Shown: one piece after another, positions 45,408 to 61,733 of the stretch
How positions within the stretch are numbered: position 1 is the stretch's first letter
Layout: each line of letters begins with the position of its first letter
NCBI GenBank assembly: GCA_963798085.1
Contig: CAWCRS010000005.1
Coordinates: 544,001 to 608,000, forward strand
Length of the DNA: 64,000 nt
Origin: an uncultured Gemmatimonadales bacterium
GTDB taxonomy: Bacteria > Gemmatimonadota > Gemmatimonadetes > Longimicrobiales > RSA9
Direction of reading: 5' to 3'
The notes under the pieces: model-generated
The model's database searches: none
What the model saw: only the letters and a program-made list of their open reading frames with translations
Told to the model about the DNA's origin: nothing
Program-made: the position numbers and the translations under genes

Positions 45408-46084
45408 TGGACGAACGCACGCCCGGCGACAGCCTGTCAATCGCGATAACAGAAGATTTCGCGGTTCCCGCGGACGCACATCCGCTCCTTCGCTTCACGT
45501 CGTTCCGTACGGAGTTCGCCGTGCCGCTCGACACGCTGGCTTCGCCGGGCTGGCTGGTCGATCTGCTGCGCGCCGACGCGGCCGCACCCTTCACGCGCAG
45601 TGAGGGGGTGCGCAGCGCCGTCCGCGACCTGCTGCGCCACGGCGGCTACAAGCCCACAGGCCGCGGCAAGCCGGCTTCCGAGTACCTCGTGCGCGCCGCC
45701 GAGGAAGGGACCCTCGCCTCGATCAACGCCGCGGTCGACGTCTGCAACGCCGTCTCCCTGCACAGCGGCCTGCCCATCAGTGTGGTCGACCTCGATCGCG
45801 CGCACCCGCCCTTCCGCATCGGCCTCGGCCCGGCAGGCTCCAGCTACATCTTCAACGCCGCCGGCCAGGAGATCGACGTCACCGGGCTGCTCTGCCTGTT
45901 CGATGCCGACGGGCCCTGCGCCAATGCCGTGAAGGACGCGCAGCGTACCAAGACCACGCCGGGCACGCGCCGCACGCTCTCCATCGTCTGGGCCGACACC
46001 GCGCACTCCGAGCTGCTCACCGCCGCAACCATCTGGTACCGCTCCCTGCTCTCCCGTCTGTCCGCAGCGGTGGCGCACGGTTAG
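45407..46084 (+). CDS. Stand-alone B3/B4 (PheRS beta-like) domain protein
   Basis: GYKPTGRGKPASEYL, INAAVDVCNAVSL.SGLPISVVD; TGATG overlap with the MBL gene. Confidence 0.82.
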   Translation: MDERTPGDSLSIAITEDFAVPADAHPLLRFTSFRTEFAVPLDTLASPGWLVDLLRADAAAPFTRSEGVRSAVRDLLRHGGYKPTGRGKPASEYLVRAAEEGTLASINAAVDVCNAVSLHSGLPISVVDLDRAHPPFRIGLGPAGSSYIFNAAGQEIDVTGLLCLFDADGPCANAVKDAQRTKTTPGTRRTLSIVWADTAHSELLTAATIWYRSLLSRLSAAVAHG

Positions 46085-46228
46085 TACGAGCTCATGCAAT
46101 GGCAGGGGCCCTGAGAAACGGCGGCCCATCCCGGCAGGACAGCGCCGGTTGGCATTCACCGGAATTCATCGCCGTCGAGGTGGTGAAGCGCCCGCGTCGG
46201 CATTGTTCAGCCGATACGGCGCGCTCAT

Positions 46229-49200
46229 CTACCTCTGCGCACCGCCCGCTCTGCCCACTGCGTGCTGCAACGAATCGAGCGAGCGGTCCTCGGCCACCCA
46301 GTAGGGTGTCGGGAAACGGTGCGGCGCAGGCCAGACTTCGTTGAGCGTGTCGCCTTCGTAGACCACGCCGTTCTTGATCACGTACCGGATCTGGTTGGTG
46401 TTGCGGATATTCTCGAGCGGATTCGCGTTGAGTACGACAAGGTCGGCCAGCTTGCCGGGCTCGATGGCTGCCCAGGTCGCGGTCGAAGCCGATGCTCTCC
46501 GCGCCGATGATCGTGGCGCAGCGCAGGACTTCCATGGGCGTCATGCCGCCGGATGCTCAGATTCCACAGCTCCCAGTGCGCGCCCAGGCCCTGCTGGTTG
46601 CCGTGCGACCCGAACCCGACGTGCCCGCCCGCGCGCAGCACGTCACGCGCGCCCGCCGCGATCGTCGGGAAGATGTAGTCCTCCTCGACGATAAGCGGGC
46701 GGCCGGCGCGCGTACGAGTCCAGCTCCACGTGCGGTGTGAAGTAGCGCGGCTTGGCATCGCCGTGCATGTCCCAGCGGCCCGCCAGTAGTCCTGCGACTC
46801 CGGCCCGCCGTAGGACGCGATCATGGCGGCGTGTACGTGATGCCGGTCTGCGCGATCAGCTGGATCAGGTCCTTGTAGATCGGCACAACAGGGAGTGTGT
46901 GCTCGAACGCGGTGAAGCCGTCCAGCGCCATGGTCACGTCCGCCTTGAGGTCGCCGGCGCCCTCGTTCGTGATATTCATGCCTTCCGCGCGCGCCGCCTG
47001 GATGAACCACTGCCGTTGGATCCGGCGAGGCTGCAGGTACTGCTTCAATGAGTTCGCACCCTGCGCCTTGTAGCGGAGCACGGCGTTGTAGCGCGTCCTC
47101 GTAGCTGCGCACGGGCACGTTCGTGGAAGTGAGCGGCGGGCCGGTCGCGTAGATGCGCGAGCCGATCATGCCGCCCGCGTCCATCAGCTCGCCCCAGGGG
47201 AACGATCCACGCAGGCCGCTGGGGTTGCGCGTGGTGGTGACGCCGTAGGCGAGGTTCGATGGCGATGCTCCATTCCTGGTCCGGGCGCGATCTCTCTGCC
47301 CGTGCGCGGGTGCGCGTGCACATCGACAAACCCGGGAATGATCGTAGCGCCATTCACGTCGATGACGCGCGCGCCCGCCGGCACCGTGGCGCGACCCACG
47401 GCGCGGATGCGGTTGTTCTCGATCAGGATGTCGCCGCGCGCGATCACCTCATCGCCACGCATCGTGATGAGCCGCGCGCCGCGCAGTACCAGCGCACCCT
47501 GCGGCGAGGCGCGCGGCACGCGCAGCGTCACGGCAGCCGAGTCGATGCCCCATTCGTCGCGGCGGTCACTTGCCATCACGCGCTCCAGCGCAGCGCGGTA
47601 GAAGCTGTTGGCAAAGCTCCAGGCAATGGTGCGCCCGCCGTCCCTCCAGGCGACGTAGTTCGCGCCCTGCGTGGTAATGCGCCGCAGCGGCACGGATGGC
47701 GACGCGAGATTCGATGGCAATGCCGTCTGCGCCCGCCGCGGTCATGGCCATCACGTACGATCGTCGCGGTCCTGGACCAGCAGGTAGCGACCGTCGGGCG
47801 AGGGGATCGCCGTCATGTTGCCGCCCGCGCCGGGCGACGTGAAGCGCGCGTGCAGTCGCCTGGCCTGACCATCCATGCGGAGCGACGCGAGCACCGCCGT
47901 CGGCGTGCCGGCGCCACCGCCTGATCCCTCGGTGAAGAAGACACGCGCCGTGTCGCCTCCCGCTGTACCGTCATGGGCGACGGCTGCCCGCAGTGATGGC
48001 GGTGCGCCTCGCCGCCGTTGGCGCTGACCCAGCGCAGCTCGCCCAGACCGGCCTCGGGCGCACCCTGGCCGGCGCGCACCGAAGCGGCGGCGTAGACCAC
48101 GCGGTCGCCTTCCGGAGACCAGACTGGCGACTGGTAGTAGCCGGCGTTCTGCGTCAGCCGCACAGGCGAGCCGCCGCTGCCGCGAACTTTCCACACGTGG
48201 CCGCCCGCGGAGTCGGACCAGCTCACGTACGCGATCCACTGGCCATCCGGCGAGAAGGCTGGCTCGTACTCGCGCCCCGGCGAGTCTGTCGCCCGGCGGG
48301 GTGTGCCCCGCAGCTCGCTGACCCAGACTTTCCCCACCGCGCTGAACGCAATGGAGCGGCCATCGGGCGACGGCTGCACACCCAGGAAGTTGCGCACCGG
48401 CATGTCGCCATCCTCGATGCGCAGGGCCGCACGGTGCCGTGTGGCCACACCCTGTTCGACGTGCGCATGGAAGGGAATCGTGCGGATCTGCCGCGTCGCC
48501 AGCTCCACGCGCTGAATGTGGCCGCCCGCCGTGAACACCACCGCCCTGCTGTCCGGCGTGAAGGCGTAGCCGGGCAGAATATCGTTGGGCGCGTACCCTT
48601 CCTGGTCGTCGCGCTGCATCTCGGCGACCAGCCAGTGATCCTCCTGCGTCTGCAGATCGCGGATGCGCAGCGCCGTCTGCGTCCACGCGCGTGGCGTATA
48701 CCAGCCAGCGCCCGTCCGGCGAGGCGATGGGGCGCAGGCCGCCGCCATAACCTGATGTCAGTGTCTGCCGTTCACCGGTCGCGCGATCGAAGCGCACCAC
48801 CTGGTACGAGTTCACGTTGGCGCTCGCGTACCCGCCGCTGTGGCTCGCGAAGTACATGTGCGCCCATCCGGCGAGAACGACGCGCCCGTGTTGGTCGTCG
48901 TGCCGGTGCCGCCTGCTCCCGGAAACAGCTCCGTTCCGTTGCCGCCGTTCCTGTGGTACAGCCACAGCGGCACGTTGCGCAGGTAGTCGACCGGGCCCGG
49001 ATACGGGCCGAACTTGCGCGCCACGAGATAGTCTCCGTCCGGCGTCCATTCCGGTGAGCTGAGCGCGAAGTCGACTTCCTTCGTCACCTGTTTGCGCCCG
49101 CTGCCGTCGAGGTTCACCAGCCACAGGTTGTCGCTGCCGCTGCGATCGCTGATGAACGCGATCGTTTTTCCGTCCGGTGAAAACCGCGGCATGCAGTCCC

Positions 49201-49583
49201 ACGGCATCCCGCTCGTGATACGCCTCGCCGCGCCACCATCAATCGGCAGCGGTATAGAGGTCGCCCATGAGGTCGAAGACGAGCGTGCGCCCATCGGGAG
49301 AGACGTCGAGCGAGATCCATGTGCCTTCATCCGTGTCGAAGGCGATCGTACGGTCCGGTCTTATCGGCAGCGCCACCGCCGTATCGCCAGGAGCGCCCTG
49401 CTGCGCTGTTGCGCGACGGGCTGGCAGCAGCAGCGCGAGCACCAGCGCTGGCCCCACGATCGCGCAGTTCGCGACGGTGTGCCCCGGTTGCCGGCGCGGG
49501 ATTGCCGGCGCCGCGGCATCGTTGCGAGTGTCCCGGGATGGCGCGTACGCAGCGCGCGCTGTGTGGTTCCTGGTTGTGCGCAT
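46229..49583 (-). CDS. Secreted PD40/TolB-repeat amidohydrolase with at least a dozen frameshifts (sequencing error or pseudogene)
   Basis: Fragments in order: EGTWISLDVSPDG, FSPDG repeats, IIPGFVDVHAH, AYGVTT, GSHG.QQGLGAHWELW, IEPGKLADLVVL..NPL. Confidence 0.8.
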
Positions 49584-49814
49584 GGCTCGCTCGCTGGGGT
49601 GGGTGCAGTCGGGGGGTATGCAAGATGCCGCCCCGCAGCAGCCGCGCAAGGCGAAGCTCGCACGCCCTGCCCGCACACGCGCGAGGCATGCGCACGTCAA
49701 TGCCGCACGCTTGTAGACTTGTGCGGGCCCCTCGCGAATGAGGATGCGACTGCCGGGCGACGTCGACTTCACTAGATTGCGCTGCGATTGGTGCGGACCG
49801 TTTCCGGAGGGACC

Positions 49815-50894
49815 ATGCACATCGCACAACACCGCTGCGTCGTAATCGGAACCATGGTGATCGCGCTGGCGGCGCTCCGTTCGGGCGGCGCCGCGCAGCA
49901 GACCGCGCTGCCCTGCTCCGAGCTGGCCCAGATTCTCGGCGGCTCGCCGGCAACGTCCGGCAATGTGTGCAAGGTCAACCTGCCACGCGTGGATCTGCAG
50001 GTTACACTGCTGGGTGCCACACTGCCGCCGGGCGCGGGCCTCACTTCATGGGCAGCGTTTCTACCCGCCGCGGACGGCGCCCTCGTCATGGGCGACCTGG
50101 CTCTCACGACAACCGAGCTGTCCAGCGTGCTGCGCGGACTGCGCGACGGCGGCTTCAATGTCACCGCCGTGCACCGCCACATGCTGGATGAGACGCCACC
50201 CATGAGCTTCGCCCACTACATGGGTCATGGTGACGCGCGCGACCTCGCGCACAAGCTGCGCCTCGCGCTCGGTGCGCCCACCCCGCCCTCGCCGTTTCCC
50301 GGCAGCATTGGGGAGCGCGGCGTGGTCAGCGGTGTGCCGTGCGGCGCGATTCAGAAGCTGCTCGGTGCCGGTGACAGTGGCACGGACGCGGGCGCCGGCT
50401 TCTGCAAGATCACGCTTCCGCGCAGCGACCTTGCCGTGACCCTGAACGGAACGGCGCTGCCGCCGGCCATGGGTGTTGCCAGCTGGTTCGCGTTTCAGGA
50501 GGTGCCCGATCGCAGCGCCGTGGTGCTCACCGGTGACATGGCGCTCACGGAAGCGCAGGTCAGCAATGCACTGGGCGCAATGGTGCAGGCGGGCGTCGAC
50601 GTCGTGGCGCTGCACAATCACATGACTGGCGAACAGCCGCGCATCGTGTTCTTCCACTTCCAGGCGAGAGGCAACGCCGCCACCCTGGCGCAGGCTGTGC
50701 ACGATGCGCTGCAGGCGTCGCGCCAGGAGCGCCCGCCCGGGAAGGCACCGGCTGCGCGCTTGCTTCAGTTGAGGCGTTCGGGGAATCCCGATTCCCGGAT
50801 GCGGAACCGGTTCCAGGCCTTGCCGTTGCGCACCAGCAGCAGGGCTTCCTGCACGAAGGGGAACGTATTGACGTCGATCAGGGCGCCGTTGTAA
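49815..50894 (+). CDS. Secreted DUF1259 (LppY/LpqO-like) tandem-domain protein; 3' end uncertain
   Basis: GGAGG RBS; two repeats of PR.DL.VT..G..LP...G..SW.AF, GD.AL, A.H.HM..E.P...F.H. Confidence 0.8.
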   Translation: MHIAQHRCVVIGTMVIALAALRSGGAAQQTALPCSELAQILGGSPATSGNVCKVNLPRVDLQVTLLGATLPPGAGLTSWAAFLPAADGALVMGDLALTTTELSSVLRGLRDGGFNVTAVHRHMLDETPPMSFAHYMGHGDARDLAHKLRLALGAPTPPSPFPGSIGERGVVSGVPCGAIQKLLGAGDSGTDAGAGFCKITLPRSDLAVTLNGTALPPAMGVASWFAFQEVPDRSAVVLTGDMALTEAQVSNALGAMVQAGVDVVALHNHMTGEQPRIVFFHFQARGNAATLAQAVHDALQASRQERPPGKAPAARLLQLRRSGNPDSRMRNRFQALPLRTSSRASCTKGNVLTSIRAPL

Positions 50895-51973
50895 CGCGGC
50901 GTTATGGTGCTGAGCGGCGTGTGGCCAATGACGAGCAGGCGGGCATCGAAGCGCTGGAGGACCGCGCTCAGTGCATCCCTGAGCGAATCACCCTGCGCGT
51001 AGTCGCGGTACCAGAAGACGCTGCGCGGACCCCAGAAGAAGTCGTTGCGACGCTCGACCGCGGCGGAGTCCAGCGGCACGGCGTAGGTCGAGTCCGTCCA
51101 GCGGTAGAACAGGTCTTCGCGGGTGTACGCGGCAAGCGTGTCCTCGTACGAATCCAGCGTCCATGCCGCGTAGTCCGTCGATACACCGCCGTGCGCGAAC
51201 AGCACGTCGCCAATGCGCAGCAGCGCGGGCCGCGTGATCAGCCAGCGCCCGAGCACGGAAAGGCGGGGATCGTACAACCGGTCGTAGCCAATGTGGTGGC
51301 GGCGCGCGATCTCTTTCTCCTTGGGCGATACATAGCGCAGGTCGCCCAGCATGATCATGATCTCGTGGTTGCCGAGCACCATGTGCAACCGCCCGCCCGC
51401 GCTCTCCGCCTGCGCCTCGAGCTGGTAGAGCAGCCAGAGCGCGCGCGTCGCGTCGGCGCCCCGATCGAACACGTCGCCCACCACCACCAGCTGCCGCCGG
51501 CCGCCCGTCCATTCCAGGCTGTCACCCACCAGGCCTGCATTGCGCAGCACGCGCACGAGCCGGTCGAACTCGCCATGGATGTCGCTGACGACGTAGATCG
51601 AATCCGCCGCGGGCCATGACACGCGGGGCTTCCCCGCGTCCTGGCGGATGGTCGTCCACCAGCCTCCCGCCGAATCCGGTGCCTCGCCGTAATGCAGTGT
51701 CAGCGGTCGCGCACCGGGATCCCGGAAGACCACCGTGTGCTCGCTGTCCGGCGCCGTCGTCGTGTGCAGGCGGACCCGCCCACCCGTGCTCACATCCAGA
51801 AACCCCGCGACCGGCCGGTTCGTGATCCAGCTCACTGCCAGCGAGTCACCCTGGCGCCGCACCCACAGCCCGTACTCCCCATCAAGCCGGCCCACTGCGT
51901 CCTGTTCCGCCGCCGGCCCTCCTGCCGCCAGACAGAGCGCAACCGCTGCCACATAACCCGCGATTATCTTCAC
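50765..51973 (-). CDS. Secreted Shewanella-like (Shelph) PPP-family metallophosphoesterase
   Basis: Signal peptide MKIIAGYVAAVALCLAAGGPAA; SDIHG, GDVFDRG, GNHE, HGG, GHT, IDV. Confidence 0.88.
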   Translation of the reverse strand: MKIIAGYVAAVALCLAAGGPAAEQDAVGRLDGEYGLWVRRQGDSLAVSWITNRPVAGFLDVSTGGRVRLHTTTAPDSEHTVVFRDPGARPLTLHYGEAPDSAGGWWTTIRQDAGKPRVSWPAADSIYVVSDIHGEFDRLVRVLRNAGLVGDSLEWTGGRRQLVVVGDVFDRGADATRALWLLYQLEAQAESAGGRLHMVLGNHEIMIMLGDLRYVSPKEKEIARRHHIGYDRLYDPRLSVLGRWLITRPALLRIGDVLFAHGGVSTDYAAWTLDSYEDTLAAYTREDLFYRWTDSTYAVPLDSAAVERRNDFFWGPRSVFWYRDYAQGDSLRDALSAVLQRFDARLLVIGHTPLSTITPRYNGALIDVNTFPFVQEALLLVRNGKAWNRFRIRESGFPERLN

Positions 51974-52081
51974 CCGTCAGTCCTCTGCACCACGTCCTCG
52001 AGCATGGTCCACATCTCATACACCACCCCGACAACCATCCGTCATCGGTTCCCGAGCAACGAACTCGCCAACAACGCCGTT

Positions 52082-52132
52082 GAATCCGTTTCCGTAATCC
52101 CCGGCCCGAGCCCCAGCCCCAGCTCCAGCAAC
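52082..52132 (-). repeat. G-rich dispersed repeat, copy 3
   Basis: Minus strand GTTGCTGGAGCTGGGGCTGGGGCTCGGGCCGGGGATTACGGAAACGGATTC, 3 nt after the kinase-like gene stop. Confidence 0.65.
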
Positions 52133-52135
52133 CTT

Positions 52136-53083
52136 CTAGAAAACAGCGATCTTGCCCTTGTCGATATCTGCCAGCAGGCTCTGCAGCCTCGATTCGACGC
52201 CCCGGATTTCGCGGGTCGTGAGGCCGAACTGCACCACCTTTCCCGAACGTCGTACTCCGCGGCCTTCGCCCAGGTTCGCGCCGCGCGCCACGGGCGCCAG
52301 CTGATCGCCCTGAATCTCGAACTGCACGAGGACGCCCAGCCCGTCACGCAGCTGCTCCGGCGTGATGGCGCGCAGTCGCGCCACCGTGGCGCGTGGCAGG
52401 CGGGGCACGCGAATGTTGCGCCATTCGTAGCCCCGGTCGCTGGCCTGGCTCTCGAATGCCAGACCGTTGTCCACGGAGAAGACACGCGGCAGTGTCGCAC
52501 TCTGGGAGAGGAGGAAATTGCCGACATTCGAGTCGTTGTGGTGAATCAGGTAGGTAAGGATGTTGAAATCGCCGAGGTGACGCGCGTAGACCGTATCGCG
52601 TTGGGCCCGGTTCCTGTCGTAGAAGTTGTCCGGCGAAACCTGCAGCAACCAGTACTGCAGCACCACCACAACGGACTGCGCGCCGTCGAACGTGGCTTCG
52701 GCGGCAGCATCGTATTGTTGCAGCCACGTCAGGGGCACTGCGCGCACGACCGTCGGCGGAACGGCGTAGTCCCCGGGATCCAGGAACAGGCGCTGTATCT
52801 CGTACGCGGCCAGCTCGTAGCGCGGCTCGTTGTTGAACGCGGTCCCGCCCACCGGCGCGCGCGCCAGCTTCGCCACCAAAACGCTGCTGTCGGCGAACTG
52901 CAGCGTGATGCGCTGCGTGCGATCGCCCTGGGCCCGTGAGCCGCGCACATCCAGAATGTTCAACGGAGCCGAACGCAGGCGTGCCTCGATGCTGTCGACT
53001 GCGATCAGGTAGTTGGCATCCTGTGCCCGGCCGTTGGCGGGCAGCACCGACAACAGAGCCGCGGCCAGCAGTGTGCGCTTCAT
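52136..53083 (-). CDS. Secreted atypical kinase-fold protein (PI4KII/Fam20/HipA-like)
   Basis: Signal peptide MKRTLLAAALLSVLPANGRA-Q; LVAK, YELAAY, VPPTVVR, LQYW, YLIHHNDSNVGNFLL, VDNGLAF. Confidence 0.72.
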   Translation of the reverse strand: MKRTLLAAALLSVLPANGRAQDANYLIAVDSIEARLRSAPLNILDVRGSRAQGDRTQRITLQFADSSVLVAKLARAPVGGTAFNNEPRYELAAYEIQRLFLDPGDYAVPPTVVRAVPLTWLQQYDAAAEATFDGAQSVVVVLQYWLLQVSPDNFYDRNRAQRDTVYARHLGDFNILTYLIHHNDSNVGNFLLSQSATLPRVFSVDNGLAFESQASDRGYEWRNIRVPRLPRATVARLRAITPEQLRDGLGVLVQFEIQGDQLAPVARGANLGEGRGVRRSGKVVQFGLTTREIRGVESRLQSLLADIDKGKIAVF

Positions 53084-53875
53084 GATGCGCCTCCGGTTTC
53101 CAGTTTGAGCGGCAGGAACACCGTGAACGTCGATCCCTGTCCCTGCACGCTGCGTACGCTGATGCGCCCGCAATGCCGGTCGATCACCTGGCGCACGATC
53201 AGCAGCCCCAGACCCATGCCCACGCGTTCGCCCTTGGTGGAGAACCCCGGCTCGAAGATGCTGGCCAGGTCCTTGTCCGCGATGCCGTTGCCCGAGTCTT
53301 CGATCTCGACCTGCACCCCGCCGGGCGCCGCCTGCGTGCGCACGGTGATGCGTCCCCTGCCCTGGATGGCCTGCGCCGCGTTCACCAGCAGGTTCATGAA
53401 AACCTGCCCGACCTGCTGCGGATAACACGCGATCAGCGGCACATCGCCGTACTCACGCACGACCTCGACGCGGTCGCGCAGTTCGTGATTCAGGATGGTG
53501 AGCGCACCATCGATGGAAGCGCGCACATCAATGTGATCCAGTTGCGCTCGATCCGGCCGGCCGAACGTGCGCAGACTCGTCACCAGCTGCACCATGCGCT
53601 CGACCGCCAGGTGATTCACCTTCATGATGCCATTGAGCGCGGACACAATACGGCGCACTTCGTCCAGCTCGGATGGCTCCACTACATCATCGGCGAGAAT
53701 CGCGTGCAGGCGGGAGAGCGCGCGGCGCAGCACGTCATCGATTGCTGTGCAGCGCGCCCAGCGGCGTGTTCAGCTCGTGCGCGATGCCGGCAACGAGCGC
53801 GCCCAGCGTGGCCGTCTTGGCCGCATTGACCTGTTCGGCCAGGGCGTCGGCGTTCTCCTCGCCCGGCGCGGGCAT
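53080..53875 (-). CDS. Sensorless NtrB-like histidine kinase (frameshift ~53738)
   Basis: H-box LGALVAGIAHELNTPLG; QVFMNLLVNAAQA, DSGNGI, FEPGFSTK, GMGLGL; no sensor or TM domain. Confidence 0.82.
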
Positions 53876-54354
53876 CAGAGAAAGGCCCGGATCAGACGGC
53901 GGCGCATCTCCAGCAGTTCGACATTGGCGGACTCGAGCGCGCTGAGACGGGCATCCAGCTCGTTCACGAGAGAGGACCGCTCCACGCCATTGCGGATGAC
54001 CAGGCTGAGCCGGTCGTTGTCCCACGGCTTCTCGAGGTAGTAGTAGAGGCCCACCTCGTTGATGGCGCGGATCGCGTTCTCCACGTCCGCATAGCCGGTC
54101 AGCAGCACGCGCGAGGTGTGGGGCCGTATCTCCCTCGCCTTGCGCAGGAATTCGATGCCGTCCATCTCCGGCATCATGAAGTCGGAGACGATGACGTCGA
54201 TGCGTTCGCTGCCCAGCTGTTCGAGCGCCTTGTGCGGCGAATTGCAGGAAATGACGCGGTACGCTGTCTCCAGCTCGAGAAAGCTGCGCAGCGCCGTGAG
54301 CACCATTTCCTCGTCGTCGACGAGGAGAATCACGGGCGTGTGTGCATCAGCCAT
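53875..54354 (-). CDS. Receiver-domain response regulator with short coiled coil
   Basis: LLVDDE, SDFMMPEMDG, LLTGY, EKPW. Confidence 0.9.
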   Translation of the reverse strand: MADAHTPVILLVDDEEMVLTALRSFLELETAYRVISCNSPHKALEQLGSERIDVIVSDFMMPEMDGIEFLRKAREIRPHTSRVLLTGYADVENAIRAINEVGLYYYLEKPWDNDRLSLVIRNGVERSSLVNELDARLSALESANVELLEMRRRLIRAFL

Positions 54355-54371
54355 GGTGCTGCCGTCCGTGT

Positions 54372-57300
54372 TCAGGCGACCAGCGACCGGATGCGCCGCG
54401 CCAGCCCCTGCAGCAGCCCGAGCGCAAGTTCCGGGTGATCGGATACCAGGTCATTGAACTCCTCGCGCCGGATGCGCAGCACATGGGTGTTCTCGGTGGC
54501 GCGCGCTTCCACGAGGCTGGGCGATTCATCGATCAGCGCCCAGGTGCCGAACGCGCCGCCCTCATTCACCACCATCTCTCCACCCACTCCGCGCAATTCC
54601 ACGGCGCCGCGGGTCACGACGTACAATGCCTCCGTCGGCTCGCCCTCGCGGATCAGCACGGTGCCGCGCTCCACAGCCAGGTCTTCCGCAATGCTGGCGA
54701 GCAGGGCGAGATGGGCGCTGCGCGCGTCCTTCAGCAGATCGACACGCTGGAAGAGGAAGACGGTTTCGATGAGATCCATGCGCTGCGCTTGTGTGCCCTG
54801 ACGTTCGGGGACCCGCTCGAGCTTGCGCCGCGCCGCGGCGGCACAGGCCGCGACCCACGGATCGCTGTCGCTCTCGAGACGGCGCAGCGCCTCGGCCGCA
54901 TGGCCGCGGGACGGGCCACCGGCCTCGGGCTGCAGAATAGGCTGCAGTTCCCGGAAAAGCGAGTAACCGACGGTCTGCTCCAGCCACTCGATTGCGTTTG
55001 CGCGGGCAATCGTGCTCCCGCTCAGCGCGAGATAACAGCGGTATATGTCATCCGGCGGAAAGATCAGACCCAGGCAGCGAAAACCGCCTTCACACCGCTC
55101 GCGCCAGGCATCGGCCAGCGCGCCGCGCGTCAGACTCACGATGCCGCCATCTTCGCCCACGCTTTGCAGGCTGGCGCGCGCCGTGGCGTAGCGATCCGCC
55201 ACCGCCACTTCCCGCCGCACCACTTCCAGCGCCAGCTGCGTGTCGAACACGAGATCGCTGTGCTGCGCGCGCAGCTTGCTCAATGCCTTGATGATTCTGT
55301 AGTCGAGCAGCTGTTCGGTTTCGGGCGCGAGCACCGCGCGCAACAGAGTGTTTACAGTCTCCGCACAGGGGATCCTGGCGAGCACGGAGGGCAGTGCCCG
55401 GCGCACCAGTGGATGGGCGCGCGTGTCCAGCAGCTGCGCCGCGAGCGGCGCGATGGCCGAGGGTCCCAGCGCGGCCAGCGCGGTGCGCGCCGCGGCGCGC
55501 GTGTCCGGTCGCGCCAGCGCCGCGATGAGGCGGGGCTGCGAGCGCTGCAGCCCCATCCGGCCCGCGGCCAGCAGCGCGGTCGATGCGACGGCGGGTTCCG
55601 GATCATCCAGCAGCTGCTCGACCGCGCGCTCGGCCTCGGCATCACCGGGCAGCGCGCTCGCCGCCAGTGCCAGCTCGGCGCGCTCCGCCGCGTCAGCCGG
55701 GCGCGCCGTTGCCAGGCGCAACGGATAGCGCCGGCGGATCGCGTCCCTGTCGTACCCGGGCACATCGCCCCGCGCAATGCACGACAGCACCGCCGTGCGC
55801 ACAGCGGCCTGCTCCGAGCTCAGCAGCTCCTCGAGCGCCTTGCCGTTGTCCGATGCCGCGAGAAACGCACGCACCGCCGCTTCCCGCACGGCGGGCGATA
55901 CATCGAGCAGGCGGGCGCGAATGCGCGCGCTCTCCACCGCGTGCGGAAAGCGCTCCAGCAGCACCAGTGCGCGCGCGCGAATCTCAGCGGACGGATGCTG
56001 CAGCAGCCGGTTCAGCTCCAGCGCCAGTCCCTCCTCATCACGCAGCGGTGATTCACTGATGAGGTCGAGTGCGAAGGCAACCTGCAGCGGGTCGTCTGAA
56101 CCGAGCGCCCGCCGCACCAGCGGCCACGTAGTGCCGTCCGCCAGCGAGCCGTACAGACCGCGCACGCTCGCGAAGCGGCCCTCGATCGAGCGCGCCAGCA
56201 CGCGCACGTACTGGCGGCGTACGCGCATGCCCAGCGCCAGCCACACCAGCGACAGCAGCATGCCCACGAGCGCGATGCGCCGCTCGCCCATTACCTGCAG
56301 CAGCAGGAAGATGAAACCGGCGGCCGCGGCCTTGCCCAGACCTTCCTCGAGCGCGACGTCGATCCATGTCTTCGCCCTCAGCTTCAATTCCTCCGGCACC
56401 GGCAGGTACAGGATCTCGCGACCGGCGCGCTCCACGGAATAACGCAGTGTTGTCTCGGTGCCCTTGGCGAATACGCCGGCCGCCAGCGTACCGGAGAACG
56501 CGAGCGCGCCGTTGGCCACGAACATGAACGCGGGCAGCATCAGCACGGCGATGCCCACGCCGTAACGGCGCAGCAGCGGCTGCAGCACGGCGAGCATCAG
56601 CAGGGGCAGCCACTGTGTCGCGAAGTTGAACTTGCCCTGGAACGCGCTCACTGCGTCGCGCGTAACGAACGTTTCCTTGGTGAGTGCGTTGAACTGGTAG
56701 TCGACGATCTGCTTCACCAGGATCGTGACCAGCACCATCAGTGCGACGAGCCGGATGTGCGGATCACGCGCCACCTCGCGCAGGCCGCCCGCGGACAGAG
56801 CGCCCTTCGACCTGCGCCGCACAGGCCTCTGCTCCGGGCCGGCGGTGAGCGGCAGCGCCAGGCCGAACAGCACGATGAAGCCGGCCGCGACCAGCAGCAG
56901 GTTGGGCGTGCCCAGTGCGGGCGCGAGAAAGCCGGTCACAGCGCCGCCCGCCGCCGCACCGATGCTGCCGCCGGCAATGAGCATCGGGTACGCACGCTTC
57001 GCGCTGCGCGCGTCCACCATGTACTGCGCGGCCAGAAAGAACTGCGAGACGACAGCCGCCGTGAAGAGATCGTTCCAGCCGTAGAAGATCAGCCCGAACG
57101 CCTTGCTTCCCGGATGGTAGAGTGCGCGGAAGAGCAGCAGGTTGAGCGCGAAGAAGAGCGCCATGCCCGTCACCAGACGGCGCCACGGCACACGCTCGAT
57201 CATGCGCGTGTACGGTGCGACGAACAGTGCCACCGCCGCGCTCACCAGATAGACGCGGTAGAAGTTGGCGCCGCCCAGGCCATCCAGTGCAATGGCGTTC

Positions 57301-57491
57301 TTGATGGGGCGCAGCACACCCACCGCGCACTGCACGAGGAAGAACAACGCCGCCATGGCCAGGAAGCGGCTCGTGGCTGTGCGCCCGGACTGCAGGCGGC
57401 GGGCGTCTCGCGTGTCGCTCAACGTTGCGTGAGAGGGTCGGGTCGGGATTGGTGTGGCCGGAAGTGTGACGCCAATCGCGGGCGGGGTCAA
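54372..57491 (-). CDS. NTT/TLC (Npt1/Npt2)-type nucleotide transporter fused to HEAT repeats and a cNMP-binding-like domain
   Basis: MFS-like TM region with LRPIKNA, SQFF......AKRAYP.L.AGGSIG, VDYQF, LRYSV....REILYLPVP..LK..AK..ID; Ala/Leu/Arg-rich HEAT repeats; C-terminal IREGEP..ALYVV..GAVE..FG.WAL. Confidence 0.82.
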   Translation of the reverse strand: MTPPAIGVTLPATPIPTRPSHATLSDTRDARRLQSGRTATSRFLAMAALFFLVQCAVGVLRPIKNAIALDGLGGANFYRVYLVSAAVALFVAPYTRMIERVPWRRLVTGMALFFALNLLLFRALYHPGSKAFGLIFYGWNDLFTAAVVSQFFLAAQYMVDARSAKRAYPMLIAGGSIGAAAGGAVTGFLAPALGTPNLLLVAAGFIVLFGLALPLTAGPEQRPVRRRSKGALSAGGLREVARDPHIRLVALMVLVTILVKQIVDYQFNALTKETFVTRDAVSAFQGKFNFATQWLPLLMLAVLQPLLRRYGVGIAVLMLPAFMFVANGALAFSGTLAAGVFAKGTETTLRYSVERAGREILYLPVPEELKLRAKTWIDVALEEGLGKAAAAGFIFLLLQVMGERRIALVGMLLSLVWLALGMRVRRQYVRVLARSIEGRFASVRGLYGSLADGTTWPLVRRALGSDDPLQVAFALDLISESPLRDEEGLALELNRLLQHPSAEIRARALVLLERFPHAVESARIRARLLDVSPAVREAAVRAFLAASDNGKALEELLSSEQAAVRTAVLSCIARGDVPGYDRDAIRRRYPLRLATARPADAAERAELALAASALPGDAEAERAVEQLLDDPEPAVASTALLAAGRMGLQRSQPRLIAALARPDTRAAARTALAALGPSAIAPLAAQLLDTRAHPLVRRALPSVLARIPCAETVNTLLRAVLAPETEQLLDYRIIKALSKLRAQHSDLVFDTQLALEVVRREVAVADRYATARASLQSVGEDGGIVSLTRGALADAWRERCEGGFRCLGLIFPPDDIYRCYLALSGSTIARANAIEWLEQTVGYSLFRELQPILQPEAGGPSRGHAAEALRRLESDSDPWVAACAAAARRKLERVPERQGTQAQRMDLIETVFLFQRVDLLKDARSAHLALLASIAEDLAVERGTVLIREGEPTEALYVVTRGAVELRGVGGEMVVNEGGAFGTWALIDESPSLVEARATENTHVLRIRREEFNDLVSDHPELALGLLQGLARRIRSLVA

Positions 57492-57500
57492 TACCCCGGC

Positions 57501-58181
57501 TCATGCCTGAAAGCGGTACCCCACTTTCCAGACGGTGAGAAAATGCTCGGGGTGCGCGGGGTCGCGCTCCAGTTTCTTGCGCAGCTCCTTGATGTGCGAG
57601 TCGACGGTGCGCGTCATCACCAGGCCGCGATGCCCCCAGACATCGCGCAGCAATGTCGCGCGTGACGTTACCGCCCCTTCCTTGCGGATCAGCGCCAGCA
57701 TGAGGTCGTAGGCGCGGGGTGTCAGCGATACGCTCGAGCCTCGCACGCGCACGGCGCGCGACCCGGTTTCCACCTCGACATCGCCGAAGCGGATCACCTC
57801 GCGCGAGCTGCCCGGCGTGGTGCGCCGCCGCAGCAGCGACTTCACCCGTTCCAGCAGCTCCAGCAGGTGGAACGGCTTGGTCACGTACTGGTCCGCGTCC
57901 AGACGGAAGCCGCGCACCTTGTCCTGTTCCTCGCCCAGCGCCGTGAGCATCAGAACGGGCACGACAACGCCTTCCGCCCGCACCTGACGCAGCACCTGAA
58001 AGCCGTCCATGCGCGGCAGCATCGCATCCAGAACAATCAGGTCAGGCGACGCCGCGCGCGCCATTTCCAGTCCCGCGACGCCGTCCTCGGCGTGCAGCAC
58101 TTCGTAGCCTTCCAGCTCGAAATTGTAGCGCAGCCCGGCGGCGAGGTCGGCGTTGTCCTCCACCAGCAGGATGCGCGTCAT
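57501..58181 (-). CDS. OmpR/PhoB-family response regulator
   Basis: ILLVED, LD.MLP.MDG, MLTA, YVTKPF, TRTVDSHI..LRKKLE, TVWKVGYRF. Confidence 0.93.
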   Translation of the reverse strand: MTRILLVEDNADLAAGLRYNFELEGYEVLHAEDGVAGLEMARAASPDLIVLDAMLPRMDGFQVLRQVRAEGVVVPVLMLTALGEEQDKVRGFRLDADQYVTKPFHLLELLERVKSLLRRRTTPGSSREVIRFGDVEVETGSRAVRVRGSSVSLTPRAYDLMLALIRKEGAVTSRATLLRDVWGHRGLVMTRTVDSHIKELRKKLERDPAHPEHFLTVWKVGYRFQA

Positions 58182-59929
58182 GCCTGCGCATCCGGCGCGT
58201 GTGACGCCGCGCGCTCCCGACCCGCGCCCGGGAAGCGCAGCACAAAGCGCGCGCCGTGCGTGCTGGTCGCGAGGCTCGCCGAGCCGCCGTGTCTCGCCAT
58301 GATGTCGCTCACGATGGAGAGGCCAATGCCGCTGCCCCCCACGCTGCGCGCCGCGTCGCTCGAGCCGCGCTCGAACGGCTTCCAGATGACATCGCGATCC
58401 GCAGCGGCAATGCCCGGACCCTCATCCGCGACGCTCAGCTGCAGCACGTCGCCATCCAGCACCCCCTCGACGCGCACAGTCTGCCCGCTGGGCCCGTACT
58501 TCACCGCGTTGTCGAGCAGATTCAGCAGTGCCACGCGGAACGCATCGGTCATCAGCGGCACACGGATCGACGCATCGATGTCCATGACCACCGAAGCGCG
58601 CCGCGAGCGCGCCAGCGGCTCGAACGCCGCCAGCGTCTGACGCACCTCCTCCGCCACCGCTGTGGTGCGCAGCGGCGCCACACGCTCCTGCCCGACCGAT
58701 GCGAAGCGCAGCACATTCTCCACGAGATGGTTGAGACGGGTGGCCTCGCGGTCCAGATGATCGAGCGACCAGGCACGCTCCTTGTCGGTGGACAGGCGGC
58801 CCAGACGCAGCGTGTCCAGATACAGGCGGATCTGCGAAAGCGGCGTGCGCAGCTCGTGCGACACCGCAGCCACGAAATCGGCACGTGTGCGCGTCAGCGC
58901 GGCCGCCCGCCGCAGCTGCTGCACCGCCACCACCGAGAGCGTCGCCGCCACCAGCAGCAGGCCGATCAGCAGCGGCAGCCGTGAGCGCGGCAGTCCGCCA
59001 ATCACCAGCATGTTCGCAACACGCGGTTTGATGGCGGCGCGCACCGTGAAGCCGCCCCAGGCATCGGGTACGTGGTCGTCACGATACGCCTCGATCCGAT
59101 CGGCGTCCGGATCGGAGCGGTACACCAGCTGGCCACGACGGTCCAGCACGCGCACGGCAATGAGATCGCGATTCAGATGATTGCGCGTGAGCGCGGGCGG
59201 CAGCAGGTCTTCCTGATCGATGATGCTGCCGAACAGCTCCATGACCGTGCGCGGCGCCAGCTCCACCGCGTACACGATCGTGTCGCCTGCGCTCCTCGCC
59301 ATGGGGCGGTACGCGAAGACACGCGGTCGACCCTGGAACTCGCCCACCACGATGCCGTACTGCCAGTCGACCGCGAACTGATGGCGCACCGCAGCGCTCA
59401 GCGTGTCGATCACCCAGCGGCGCTCCGCCGCGCTGTAGGGCGCTACATCGGGTATCTCTTCGCTCTGCCAGTGCCGGATCACCGCGGCCGTGTCCACGAT
59501 AACACCGTGCTCGCCGCGGTAGAGGTTGGGTACTACCGCGATCGTGTCCGCGCCCAGCGTGTAGCCAAGGAAATACCTGGCGGGATACTCCATGCGGTGG
59601 CAGAAACAACCGGCGGAATCCCAGGGCAGCATGTGCGCCAGCACGATCGCAGGAGGCACGTCGCTGCCTTCGTGCAGGCCGCGGCCGTGATTCACCGGGC
59701 CGAGCACACTGGCCGCCGTCGCAAACAGCGCGTCTTTCAGGTGCTGGCGAAAACTCCACGCCGCAAACGACGTGTAGTCGCGCAGCGTTTCCTCGGCCTG
59801 CCGGTGATTCTGGCGCACCGCCTCCTGCGCCTGGAACGCCGCGACCAGCACGATCCCGATACTGGCCAGCAGCAGCACCAGCGGCAGGGTCAGCCGGAAA
59901 CGCTCCGCCCCCTTCGGCTTCAGCTTCAT
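58178..59929 (-). CDS. Membrane sensor histidine kinase with large periplasmic domain
   Basis: Two TMs; VSHELRTPL, NLLDNAVKY, DEGPGI, GSGIGL; ATGA overlap with the regulator gene. Confidence 0.92.
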   Translation of the reverse strand: MKLKPKGAERFRLTLPLVLLLASIGIVLVAAFQAQEAVRQNHRQAEETLRDYTSFAAWSFRQHLKDALFATAASVLGPVNHGRGLHEGSDVPPAIVLAHMLPWDSAGCFCHRMEYPARYFLGYTLGADTIAVVPNLYRGEHGVIVDTAAVIRHWQSEEIPDVAPYSAAERRWVIDTLSAAVRHQFAVDWQYGIVVGEFQGRPRVFAYRPMARSAGDTIVYAVELAPRTVMELFGSIIDQEDLLPPALTRNHLNRDLIAVRVLDRRGQLVYRSDPDADRIEAYRDDHVPDAWGGFTVRAAIKPRVANMLVIGGLPRSRLPLLIGLLLVAATLSVVAVQQLRRAAALTRTRADFVAAVSHELRTPLSQIRLYLDTLRLGRLSTDKERAWSLDHLDREATRLNHLVENVLRFASVGQERVAPLRTTAVAEEVRQTLAAFEPLARSRRASVVMDIDASIRVPLMTDAFRVALLNLLDNAVKYGPSGQTVRVEGVLDGDVLQLSVADEGPGIAAADRDVIWKPFERGSSDAARSVGGSGIGLSIVSDIMARHGGSASLATSTHGARFVLRFPGAGRERAASHAPDAQA

Positions 59930-59936
59930 GTCAGGC

Positions 59937-60555
59937 TCAACAACCCCTGCGTTGCGCTCCCTCCACACGGGCACGGGCCGCGGCTTCGTCCACGGATTTC
60001 ATGGCAGGCGACGATGTTCGCCCCGTGTTGCCTTCCGCTGACGCCGTGCGTGGCATGCCGCCGAACCAGCGGCTGAGCGCCGCAATTTCGCGAAATGCCG
60101 CACTGTCCGCCGCACTCGCGCGACTCGGCAATACCGGCTCCATGATGACATTCGATCCAACCGGCCAGGCCACCGCGCAGCAGCAGCGTGTTTCGTATAC
60201 CGCGGGCCAGCAGCATCGCCTGCACGCTCGCGGCTTCTGCTTCACCATCGGAATACACCACAATGCGCTGCTGCTCTCCGAACCGGGCGTCGGGCAGGCG
60301 GTCCGGCGGCACGTTCTCCGCCATGGCGATGTGGTACTTCGAGAAGGACACGGAGTCGCGCACATCGATCAGACGCAGGCTCTCCCGGCCCGCCCGCAGC
60401 CAGCGCGCCAGCTCGATCGCAGCCACCGTCGCGCCAGGCGCTCCAGCCCGTGCTCCTGTGCCGATCGTGTCTGCCAGCAACGCACCCGTCGCCAGCAGCG
60501 CCGCAAGTACCGCCAGCACCTGCACAGCGCGGATGCGGCGCGGGCCTGCACTCAT
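59937..60555 (-). CDS. Membrane-anchored rhodanese-like protein with C-terminal RRGC tail (frameshift ~60151)
   Basis: N-terminal TM; LIDVR....F..YHI..A; VVYSDG (Ser at the catalytic Cys position); LRGG..GW; SRWFGG.P..RRGC. Confidence 0.75.
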
Positions 60556-61142
60556 GGCCGCAAGCCTCGACGTTCCAGCCACGCCACGCCGCCGAACATG
60601 AGCAGCGCCATGGCTGTCACGCCGAACACCACGACGCCCTGCGGCACGTGCCACAGCTGCGGCAGCGTGATGCCGCCCAGCGCCGTGCGCTCGTAGAAGG
60701 ACTGCAGTCGCGCGAACAGCTCAGCAAACAGCAGCACACCCGCCGCCATGCCCAGCATCACGGCGAGGCCGTCCCTGCGCCCGGTTGCGGCCGCCACGCA
60801 GGATGTGCCCGGGCAGAGACCCGCGACCAGGAAGCCCGCGCCGAACACCGCACCGCCCACGGCCTGCGGCAGCACCCAGGTGGGCGGCACGTAGATCCGC
60901 GCCACGTCGAGCACTCCCAGCCGGTCCAGCCAGAAAAGGCCCAGCATGGCGGTGACAATCGCCGTGAACATCACCTTCAGCACCGTGAAGTCACGCAGAT
61001 AGAACTGGCCCGCCAGCTTGCGCGCGCTGCCCAGGCCGCCCCGCTCCAGGAACCAGCCGAACGCCACGCCCACCAGCAGCGCCACCGCCAGCGATGCGGT
61101 GTCTCCAAACAGACTGTTACCCCACAGCGGCATCATGTCCAT
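60552..61142 (-). CDS. YeeE/YedE sulfur-transport family protein, half 2
   Basis: GVAFGWFLERGG, QFYLRD..VLKVMFTAI, GG.VFG.G...AGLCPGT. Confidence 0.88.
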   Translation of the reverse strand: MDMMPLWGNSLFGDTASLAVALLVGVAFGWFLERGGLGSARKLAGQFYLRDFTVLKVMFTAIVTAMLGLFWLDRLGVLDVARIYVPPTWVLPQAVGGAVFGAGFLVAGLCPGTSCVAAATGRRDGLAVMLGMAAGVLLFAELFARLQSFYERTALGGITLPQLWHVPQGVVVFGVTAMALLMFGGVAWLERRGLRP

Positions 61143-61711
61143 TGCCTCCGCACCAGCGGCGCCAGCGCGAAGCCGGCCGCGAACGCGGTCGCCATGAAGA
61201 TCCAGCTGCCCGGTGTGAGCAGCGCGCCCCCGGTCAGCGCCAGACCGCTGGTGCAGCCGCGCGCCAGTTTTGCGCCGAAGCCCATCAGCGTACCACCGGC
61301 AAAGCCCAGCAGGAGGCGGGACCGCTGACCGATGCGCGGGCCGCGCTCGGTGGCCAGCCGCACGCGCCCGGCCAGCCAGCCGGAGAGCAGCGCGCCCGCC
61401 AGTACGCCCACGATCTCGAACACCAGCCAGTCCGCCAGCGGACTGCGCGTGCTGTCGCCCAGATACGCCGCGTACGCGGGATTTGCCGCCGCATGCGCCG
61501 GCGCTGCCTCCTGCATGGCGGCGCTCACCGCCGCGGAGAACGCGCCCGACGCACCCAGCCCGCGGCCCATGATGAGGAACGCTGCCAGCAGCACGAGTCC
61601 CAGGCCGAAGCCCGCGAGGTACGGATTCAGATAGGGCCTCGCCATGCGCGTTGTCATCGCCGGGGGCGCCGGCTGCGCACGCGGCCGCGACCGCAGCGCC
61701 TGCGTGCTCAT
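61133..61711 (-). CDS. YeeE/YedE sulfur-transport family protein, half 1
   Basis: YLNPYLAG..LG, GRGLGASG, GG.LMGFGAKLARGCTSG. Confidence 0.88.
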   Translation of the reverse strand: MSTQALRSRPRAQPAPPAMTTRMARPYLNPYLAGFGLGLVLLAAFLIMGRGLGASGAFSAAVSAAMQEAAPAHAAANPAYAAYLGDSTRSPLADWLVFEIVGVLAGALLSGWLAGRVRLATERGPRIGQRSRLLLGFAGGTLMGFGAKLARGCTSGLALTGGALLTPGSWIFMATAFAAGFALAPLVRRQWT

Positions 61712-61733
61712 TGGCTGGCCTCCCCACCCCGCA

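Follow-up and report, generated by a model that had tools for sequence, protein, structure and literature searches.

Neighborhood of an NTT/TLC-family transporter and a putatively exported pair of kinase-fold protein and phosphatase in a soil bacterium: a possible module for periplasmic phosphorylation

How could a kinase working outside the cytoplasm of a bacterium obtain its phosphate donor? A kinase that leaves by Sec takes up its fold only after export and so needs a donor outside the cytoplasm, and the periplasm is generally treated as being without ATP. The question is raised by a run of genes (50765–57491) on the minus strand of the 64,000-nt stretch of soil bacterium DNA analyzed here, called the window. 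It encodes, in order, a transporter, a receiver, a histidine kinase (HK), a probably exported protein that we label KIN, and a phosphatase (Table 1). This gene neighborhood suggests, without proving so, that ATP is shipped out of the cytoplasm for periplasmic phosphorylation. We give a probability of about 0.45 to the reading that the genes form a regulated extracytoplasmic phosphorylation module to which the transporter feeds ATP.

Table 1. Coordinates, in the window, of the genes and domains of the run and of its upstream neighbors.
Feature	Position	Strand	Evidence
NTT/TLC-HEAT-cNMP transporter, 1039 aa	54372..57491	-	Pfam, PDB sequence match, AF2/Foldseek
Transporter, TLC membrane domain	about 56170-57374	-	
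Transporter, HEAT-repeat region	about 54792-56084	-	
Transporter, cNMP-binding-like domain	about 54375-54746	-	
Stand-alone receiver (response regulator), C-terminal helix, 159 aa	53875..54354	-	Response_reg 91.6 bits
Sensorless HK (DHp + CA only)	53080..53875	-	HisKA 21.4, HATPase_c 87.9 bits
KIN, putatively exported atypical kinase-fold protein, unnamed family, 315 aa	52136..53083	-	
KIN signal peptide, about aa 1-20	53024-53083	-	N-terminus read by eye
Putatively exported Shelph-type PPP-family metallophosphatase, 402 aa	50765..51973	-	Metallophos 57.5 bits, PDB matches, motifs
OmpR-type response regulator	57501-58181	-	Pfam Response_reg, Trans_reg_C
Membrane histidine kinase (second HK)	58178-59974	-	Pfam HisKA, HATPase_c

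Layout of the run and its two-component genes

On re-examination, the open reading frames and their junctions agree with the tight packing described in the initial annotation. A gap of 17 nt separates the transporter gene, whose TTG start is uncertain, from the receiver gene; the receiver and HK genes overlap at TGATG; KIN starts within the stop of the HK gene, in the ATGA at 53080–53083; and 162 nt lie between KIN and the phosphatase gene. The OmpR/HK pair that the same annotation placed directly upstream of the transporter is also there. Since no such pair was found adjoining the module in the 47 related KIN loci described below, it is probably an unrelated neighbor lying outside the module. 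A scan for promoters and terminators returned sites no more numerous than in shuffled sequences. None of the window ORFs that were scanned for an Omp85 barrel encodes one.

The HK of the run had been annotated as sensorless, and its domain content bears this out, with the H-box AHELNTPL on a 46-aa piece matched by HisKA and a second piece matched by HATPase_c. The single open frame, however, does not stand: the H-box piece (53738–53875) ends at a stop, and the HATPase piece (53080–53733) is in another frame. DNA alignment with two related loci, L019 and L004, places one extra base near 53740, and a 262-nt Logan contig from soil-metagenome run X1 is without that base, as read from a single contig with a depth of about 2. 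Only this one DNA run contained part of the stretch, with patchy contig cover, and no RNA run was listed for it. The 1-base insertion is probably an assembly error. The run has two-component parts, a receiver domain and an HK with H-box and HATPase_c, the HK frame being broken in the assembly. The receiver gene adjoins the transporter gene in 16 of 18 Gemmatimonadota-type loci.

Folds, residues and export signals

KIN has a kinase fold, as had been proposed for 52136–53083. Structurally it comes closest to the Fam20 secretory-pathway kinases, from which the initial annotation drew its analogy, and equally to PI4K type II. Identity with Fam20 in the structural alignments is about 15%. In Pfam, KIN reaches only a sub-threshold match to PI3_PI4_kinase (PF00454; 19.1 bits, cut-off 27.1); neither KIN nor seven scanned relatives match Fam20C (PF06702) at E ≤ 0.01; and a PDB sequence search gave only a chance-level match (E 0.58). 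The Atlas puts a bacterial PF06702 cluster near KIN at 0.94, which we treat as a lead only. The family comprises 503 representatives and is without a Pfam or NCBIfam model. Residues of putative catalytic type are kept in nearly all of the 68 sequences compared: K72 in 67, E90 in 65, D184 in 67, N189 in 65 and D205 in 67. KIN would be expected to have kinase activity.

Signal peptides were judged by reading N-termini and by a hydropathy heuristic. By eye, the N-termini of KIN (MKRTLLAAALLSVLPANGRA/QD) and of the phosphatase (MKIIAGYVAAVALCLAAGGPAAEQD) read as signals. By the heuristic, 58 of 68 KIN family members begin with a hydrophobic segment, and several more resemble lipoprotein signals; in the gammaproteobacterial phosphatases, too, the N-termini resemble signals. 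A cysteine pair in the KIN family co-varies, with both residues present in 39 of the 68 sequences, one in 9 and neither in 20. The putative signals across the family and this pair, together with fusions that place both enzymes behind a single signal peptide, agree with the export of KIN and phosphatase first claimed from the window.

The phosphatase exceeds the Metallophos cut-off of 21.5 bits, and its translation shows SDIHGE, GDVFDRG and GNHE, in line with the PPP-family motifs GDxHG, GDxxDRG and GNHE. Its closest relatives in the PDB are the Shewanella protein-tyrosine-phosphatase structures 2z72, 1v73 and 2zbm (E 7e-39 to 2e-38), and the Shelph-type assignment holds. The match to 2z72/1v73 (E 7e-39) covers residues 125–383; at the N-terminus are a hydrophobic signal and an extra domain of about 100 aa. 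Weak similarity to the ApaH family of bis(5'-nucleosyl)-tetraphosphatases is also seen (NCBIfam cut-off 176, score 39.8 bits; PDB 2dfj, E 1.6e-3). These matches would suit the scavenging of nucleotides or organophosphates, a role in which nucleotides or dinucleoside polyphosphates from outside the cell would be broken down by the phosphatase, perhaps with KIN taking part, and what results would be taken up by the NTT. In passages of Major, Embley and Williams (2017; PMC5381601) the characterized NTTs are indeed importers, in parasites and plastids. We consider such a role clearly improbable, given that the strong phosphatase match is to the tyrosine phosphatase and not to ApaH, that a Fam20/PI4KII-fold kinase with intact catalytic-type residues would have no obvious part in it, and that the KIN–phosphatase fusions look like opposing bifunctional enzymes acting on a single target.

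The transporter carries TLC, HEAT and cNMP-binding regions in a single open reading frame. It scores above the Pfam cut-offs for TLC (PF03219; 52.4 bits, gathering cut-off 21), HEAT_2 (37.3 against 27.7, aa 597–673) and cNMP_binding (PF00027; 53.4 against 27.5, aa 940–1018), and has no MFS_1 match at E ≤ 0.01 in the Pfam scan. Its kinship with the NTT/TLC family (TC 2.A.12) was part of the initial annotation and is borne out by Pfam, by sequence and by fold. AtNTT1 (9j3j) is the sole PDB sequence match (E 1.1e-10). For an AF2 model of aa 1–470 (pLDDT 81.4), the top Foldseek matches are AtNTT1 9j3m and 9j3l and C. pneumoniae NTT1 9j3n, at E of about 3e-10 to 7e-10 and TMq 0.68–0.74; the next MFS member in the ranking is VMAT2 (E 1.8e-7). 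ATP-bound and ADP/Pi-bound AtNTT1 structures are among the best fold matches. The transporter lies far below the equivalog level for NTP/NDP exchangers (TIGR00769, 45.7 bits against 387.2). NTTs are reversible exchangers, and this relative may move nucleotides, and do so in the outward direction. In none of 18 loci does the cNMP-like domain have, at the expected positions, the Glu or the Arg of the canonical phosphate-binding cassette, a motif of CAP/PKA; 16 of the 18 share the form FGTWALID-x-x-PS. A complex prediction for the TLC domain (aa 36–450) with mature KIN (aa 21–315) scored 0.00, which carries no weight either way. The paralogous TLC-like genes of the same genome, on contigs C7 and C3, have uninformative neighbors.

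Linkage and fusions in other genomes

The three genes are linked elsewhere, in two phyla and in differing orders, as the initial annotation would lead one to expect. We compared 47 KIN loci, belonging to Gemmatimonadota and Gammaproteobacteria, with flanks of up to 10 kb. A TLC-like gene is present in 37 of them, a Metallophos gene in 32 and both in 30; restricting the set to the 32 loci flanked by 5 kb or more in each direction gives 26, 23 and 22. The arrangement of KIN, transporter and phosphatase is far beyond chance. KIN lies downstream, upstream (L026) or convergent (L021, L023, L046), and is convergent in every gammaproteobacterial locus that has a TLC-like gene. In the gammaproteobacterial loci the transporter gene is on the opposite strand, and its product, only 25–30% identical, has no HEAT or cNMP regions. 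Such variation in gene order points to selection for proximity. A TLC-like gene is missing from the flanks in 10 of the 47 loci, two of these on short contigs, and all five tested genomes whose KIN locus has no nearby transporter encode TLC-like genes elsewhere. The phosphatase is missing within the flanks of L005, L017 and L045, and L001 and L003 have a second KIN, without phosphatase.

Three kinds of fusion were seen. KIN is joined to the phosphatase in six proteins of the form SP-KIN-Metallophos (P0001, P0011, P0151–P0154) and to a beta-lactamase in two (SP-beta-lactamase-KIN; P0074, P0155). In one further protein, P0024, a TLC domain is followed by one extra hydrophobic helix and KIN, a topology that, given a cytoplasmic C-terminus of the TLC domain, would place KIN outside. 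Relatives of its TLC half have KIN nearby in none of 31 metagenome loci, so this fusion remains a single, unconfirmed record.

Nearly all the related sequences come from MAGs, and genomes that share ancestry do not count as independent cases. This would fit adjacency as an inherited gene order without functional tie, with KIN an inactive kinase-fold binding protein. We regard this as very improbable: the linkage holds across two phyla at such low transporter identity and with order and strand changed, fused proteins exist, and the catalytic-type residues are retained in 65–67 of 68 sequences.

In a sample of 401 genomes of the phylum, 31 have KIN, with an orthologous transporter within about 6 kb of it in 27 and no such adjacency in 4. 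Some TLC-like gene is present in all 31, against 197 of the 401 overall; TLC-like genes are therefore far commoner than KIN (197 against 31 genomes), and other clades of NTT-HEAT-cNMP size occur in genomes without it. A quick ML tree sets the Gemmatimonadota-linked and gammaproteobacterial-linked transporter clades apart (SH-aLRT 99). The gammaproteobacterial partners are borderline TLC members (18.5–33.8 bits) and group in the quick tree with short Gemmatimonadota paralogues that score at least as well as generic MFS_1. In an AU test, a single clade of KIN-linked transporters was not rejected (p 0.123), and independent recruitment is thus not established.

It may be that the genes are coupled but that the transporter moves a small-molecule substrate or product of the kinase, or is itself a regulated target or sensor (a transceptor), with KIN taking its phosphate donor from elsewhere, be it environmental ATP or another donor. 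The distance from the equivalog level, the borderline TLC scores of the gammaproteobacterial partners, their place near generic MFS_1-like paralogues and the wide occurrence of TLC-like genes without KIN all fit this reading, and a signaling role would suit the receiver/HK pair and the sizable HEAT and cNMP-like domains in the cytoplasm. However, the membrane domain matches only NTTs in the PDB by sequence, and these best by fold, and any exported active kinase would still require a nucleotide outside. Moreover, two TLC-like clades that are apart in the best tree are both linked to KIN, which fits a need for an activity common to the family, with the AU value for a single origin as given above. 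On this evidence, such coupling without delivery of ATP seems to us rather unlikely.

The proposed module and known systems

We propose that KIN, presumably exported by Sec and with its Fam20/PI4K-type-II fold, and the likewise exported Shelph-type phosphatase would act on a common envelope target, which may be protein, glycan or lipid, and would together set its phosphorylation state. The NTT/TLC-family MFS transporter would most likely supply the nucleotide co-substrate, with ATP going out and ADP coming in, and might also retrieve Pi; ADP and Pi are the products of kinase and phosphatase. In the Gemmatimonadota form, the HEAT repeats, the cNMP-binding-like domain, the receiver and the sensorless HK may gate the ATP supply from the cytoplasm, so that the cell could control periplasmic phosphorylation from inside. 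The initial annotation had put forward an ATP-fueled periplasmic kinase/phosphatase system; linkage, kinase fold, export signals and NTT kinship argue for it, and its core, the fueling by ATP, is the part that we infer. A counterpoint is that ATP released into a porin-open periplasm would be costly. The most complete version, in which free-living Gram-negatives run a reversible periplasmic phosphorylation cycle, with an NTT exporting ATP and retrieving ADP and Pi as a gated ATP valve, and so control their envelope from the inside out, is tentative. If true, it would amount to a new level of envelope control, a bacterial counterpart of lumenal phosphorylation in the Golgi and ER; KIN would be a new kinase family, and the widespread NTT-HEAT transporters of free-living bacteria, whose function was left open by Major et al. 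(2017), would acquire one.

In passages of that paper (PMC5381601), the NTT-HEAT(-cNBD) clade is monophyletic and functionally uncharacterized, has two listed Gemmatimonadetes sequences, and is suggested to carry out cAMP-tuned ATP uptake; the words "export" and "periplasm" do not occur in those passages, which mention no linked exported kinase or phosphatase. The transporter of the window has the same TLC, HEAT and cNMP-binding architecture, also in a free-living bacterium. In contrast to the proposed tuning by cAMP, its cNMP-like domain is without the canonical cassette residues, and in contrast to the proposed uptake, its gene context points outward. Known periplasmic phosphotransfer uses other donors, as in the case of LpxT with undecaprenyl pyrophosphate (PMC2229476). 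In the open-access literature searched, we found no description of a TLC/NTT transporter with a linkage to exported kinases.

Among known enzymes, the cold-active Shelph protein-tyrosine-phosphatase of Shewanella sp. (1v73, 2z72) has PPP motifs and a sequence match in common with the phosphatase of the window, which differs in its added N-terminal domain and in being genetically tied to KIN, to the point of fusion in some organisms. The secreted Helicobacter pylori kinase CtkA (PDB 3akk) is clearly more distant from KIN than Fam20 and PI4KII are, and acts on host cells rather than in the periplasm of its producer. PI4KIIalpha/beta are lipid kinases of the cytosol that associate with membranes, whereas KIN carries putative export signals and falls below the Pfam cut-off of their family. 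The Fam20 kinases offer the nearest parallel: Fam20C, Fam20B and Fam20A receive lumenal ATP from the ER/Golgi ATP/ADP exchanger AXER/SLC35B1. Their atypical kinase fold is common to KIN, despite the low identity and the lack of a Pfam Fam20C match. In the system described here, however, the transporter is of the TLC/MFS type and not SLC35, and the bacterial setting includes two-component parts and a phosphatase of its own.

The gene run in the window

At a G+C content of about 68%, the window carries seven closely packed minus-strand genes between bp 50765 and 59974, among them that of KIN, a predicted exported kinase-fold protein. The layout and junctions of this run are as the initial annotation described them, but the short histidine kinase (HK) gene, which it took as whole, has a broken frame. 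The H-box piece, AHELNTPLGALHSN, is cut off by a stop at 53738; the HATPase portion resumes in a different frame. Alignment with the two closest KIN loci of other genomes, L019 and L004, shows that one extra base at bp 53738–53742 splits this sensorless HK; the base is absent from one short contig of soil-metagenome run X1 (depth about 2). It is likely that the break is an assembly error or a strain variant and not the mark of a decayed gene.

Several flanking genes were also recorded. A DUF1259 (PF07485) gene with two repeats is convergent with the phosphatase gene, and its ORF as listed overlaps the 3′ end of the latter by about 130 nt, so that the true end of either gene may differ. A LanC-like protein is encoded farther downstream, and a rhodanese/sulphur-transport/rhodanese trio lies immediately upstream of the two-component pair.

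Features of the window and of KIN loci in other genomes
Feature	Sequence	Coordinates	Strand	Basis or remark
Membrane histidine kinase	window	58178-59974	-	ORF + Pfam
OmpR-type regulator	window	57501-58181	-	ORF + Pfam
TLC + HEAT_2 + cNMP_binding protein, 1039 aa	window	54372-57491	-	Pfam TLC 52.4 bits, cut-off 21
cNMP-like domain of the same	window	54375-54746
Receiver, 159 aa	window	53875-54354	-	17-nt gap after transporter gene
Short histidine kinase	window	start 53875	-	TGATG overlap at start
KIN, 315 aa	window	52136-53083	-	ATGA overlap at start
Metallophos protein, 402 aa	window	50765-51973	-	Pfam; 162 nt after KIN
DUF1259 gene	window	49788-50894	+
Several ORFs	window	44436-49202		no Pfam family
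LanC-like protein	window	39673-41391	-
Rhodanese/sulphur-transport/rhodanese trio	window	59926-62672	-
Tandem KIN duplicate	L001	10001-11960
Tandem KIN duplicate	L003	8484-10404
Tandem KIN duplicate	G306:C17	50219-52181		genome of the phylum sample
Transporter with He_PIG domain	L033	10833-12461
Transporter with He_PIG domain	L016	5488-7176
Genes between phosphatase and KIN	L033	3597-9713		Steroidobacteraceae
Ectothiorhodospiraceae-type KIN locus	L018	11811-13976
Ectothiorhodospiraceae-type KIN locus	L028	11640-13733

A putative atypical kinase family and its phosphatase, both predicted to be exported

KIN has no match in NCBIfam, its sole Pfam match, PI3_PI4_kinase, is below threshold (19.1 vs. 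27.1 bits), and a sequence search of the PDB gave no meaningful match. Of 1.84 billion representatives, all searched with HMMER, 503 are related to KIN at E ≤ 1e-3, and the nearest protein-atlas clusters are named “hypothetical protein”. The AlphaFold2 model, made with a 68-sequence alignment as input, has a pLDDT of 94.1 and a pTM of 0.91; its top PDB matches in Foldseek are Fam20C and Fam20A (E 5e-7), with PI4KIIα next. Among the 68 family members, the kinase-type residues K72, D184, and D205 are each kept in 67, and E90 and N189 in 65. By sequence KIN falls outside Pfam Fam20C and PI3_PI4_kinase, and we treat it as a new family among the Fam20/PI4KII-like atypical kinases. The modelled fold ties it alike to protein kinases, Fam20B-like glycan kinases, and PI4KII lipid kinases; its target may be protein, glycan, or lipid.

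The KIN translation begins with MKRTLLAAALLSVLPANGRA/QD and that of the phosphatase with MKIIAGYVAAVALCLAAGGPAAEQD. By a hydropathy heuristic, 58/68 members of the KIN family start with a hydrophobic stretch at the N-terminus, and several of the remaining 10 seem to have lipoprotein-like signals or truncated N-termini. Both cysteines of a co-varying pair are present in 39/68, one in 9, and neither in 20, including the window KIN; such a pattern is typical of disulfide-bonded exported proteins. The closest solved relatives of the phosphatase are the cold-active protein-tyrosine-phosphatases of Shewanella (E 7e-39), and PPP motifs are found in its translation, which bears out its labelling as Shelph-type, that is, a Shewanella-like PPP phosphatase. 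The gammaproteobacterial phosphatases, of about 600 aa, also start with a signal-like segment immediately ahead of the catalytic domain.

Fusions join these parts in single chains. In P0001 and P0011, whose sequences we read, a single signal peptide is followed by KIN and then by a phosphatase domain, and precomputed Pfam assignments give KIN + Metallophos fusions for P0151–P0154. P0074 and P0155 begin with a signal peptide, followed by a class A beta-lactamase-like domain (PF13354) and then by KIN; this hints that the cell wall or envelope is acted on, or sensed, by part of the family. The sole TLC–KIN fusion, P0024, has a signal-peptide-like helix between the basic C-terminal tail of the transporter and KIN, a position that places KIN outside in the predicted topology; relatives of its TLC half were found at 31 metagenome loci, none of which has KIN nearby.

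Fam20A is a pseudokinase partner of Fam20C. Tandem KIN duplicates occur in three places (Table), and in L001 and L003 the two copies come with no phosphatase within the flanks. By analogy, the second copy in these two loci, standing in the phosphatase's place, is possibly a candidate pseudokinase partner.

Linkage across genomes

The initial annotation had staked its proposal on linkage of the three genes elsewhere. When each species was represented by one genome, 47 KIN loci were found, and their neighbours were identified by tblastn within the flanks. The loci belong to Gemmatimonadota, to Gammaproteobacteria (Steroidobacteraceae and Ectothiorhodospiraceae among them), and to single MAGs of KSB1, Caldithrix, and others. 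A TLC-like gene lies within the flanks in 37, a Metallophos gene in 32, and both in 30; the linkage is conserved. Where each flank reaches 5 kb or more (32 loci), the figures are 26, 23, and 22. The full NTT-HEAT-cNMP form is found in 18 loci, 16 of which also have the receiver/HK pair. Lineages differ in the gene order of the module. In an even phylum sample, KIN is present in 31/401 genomes (12/148 genera), and coordinate cross-matching puts a high-scoring orthologue of the window transporter within about 6 kb of it in 27 of the 31. That this linkage is without meaning we regard as very improbable. On the other side of the ledger, 10/47 loci have no transporter gene near KIN, an orthologous transporter is absent from the KIN genomes G258, G369, and G336, and in G306 it is on a different contig. 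All five searched genomes whose KIN locus has no nearby transporter have TLC-like genes elsewhere.

The transporters themselves are more widely distributed: TLC-like genes are present in 197/401 genomes of the sample, and further clades of NTT-HEAT-cNMP size are found where KIN is lacking. A quick ML tree shows each of the two KIN-linked transporter groups as monophyletic (SH-aLRT 100) and the two as separated (99); a single clade of KIN-linked transporters was not rejected by the AU test (p 0.123). The gammaproteobacterial transporter is 25–30% identical, is convergent to KIN, and has no HEAT/cNMP part, which is replaced by a C-terminal He_PIG Ig-like domain.

The Steroidobacteraceae loci (L032–L044) have, between phosphatase and KIN, a conserved nSTAND1-TPR NTPase (1125 aa), a 568-aa protein without known identity, and a PEP-CTERM protein, with TrkH/TrkA after the transporter. 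The Ectothiorhodospiraceae-type loci L018 and L028, with no transporter nearby, share a TPR-sulfotransferase gene (by Pfam in L018 only and by ORF clustering in L028), and a methyltransferase gene adjoins KIN in L018.

The transporter and a possible source of phosphate donor

What the comparison shows is three partners whose genes are conserved together and in some cases fused: a predicted exported kinase-fold protein whose catalytic-type residues are intact, a protein phosphatase likewise predicted to be exported, and a membrane transporter of the NTT family. What, then, is the transporter's role? A Sec-exported kinase requires a phosphate donor outside the cytoplasm, and the only gene steadily kept beside KIN, besides its antagonist phosphatase, is that of an NTT-family transporter. 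To our knowledge, no transporter family other than the NTTs is known for counter-exchange of nucleotides. NTTs swap ATP for ADP + Pi, in agreement with the title of PDB entry 9j3m (“ADP/Pi bound”), and a cycle of kinase and phosphatase yields just ADP + Pi. For these reasons we favor, at a probability of roughly 0.45, a phospho-switch in the periplasm that draws its ATP from regulated export. The transporter would export ATP to fuel the KIN/phosphatase switch in the periplasm, and the HEAT and cNMP-like domains, with the receiver/kinase pair, might gate that export from the cytoplasm. That the genes form a nucleotide-scavenging system instead, we hold to be quite unlikely.

The assignment to the NTTs comes from both sequence and fold. 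For residues 1–470, the sole PDB sequence match is Arabidopsis NTT1 (E 1.1e-10). By fold, the AlphaFold2 model (pLDDT 81.4) is closest to AtNTT1, in both its ATP-bound and its ADP/Pi-bound structure, and to NTT1 of Chlamydia pneumoniae (E 3e-10 to 7e-10, TMq 0.68–0.74); other MFS transporters trail by about three orders of magnitude. At the same time, the protein is far from the characterised exchangers (TIGR00769, 45.7 vs. a cut-off of 387.2 bits), and it is conceivable, if somewhat unlikely, that it moves another substrate or is itself a sensor. In the KIN-linked clade, the cNMP-like domain has FGTWALID-x-x-PS at the site of the canonical cassette, which we take to be marked by one Glu and one Arg; both are lost, and thus the ligand may be other than cAMP or cGMP. 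The window's genome has two further TLC-like genes with uninformative neighbours.

We found no account in the open-access literature of a module of NTT transporter, exported kinase, and phosphatase. A Fam20 review (PMC7948968) has no text on bacterial homologues, and “bacteria” appears there once, in the reference list. The window's transporter shares its NTT-HEAT-cNBD fusion architecture with a clade that Major et al. (2017; PMC5381601) describe as monophyletic, widespread, and uncharacterised.
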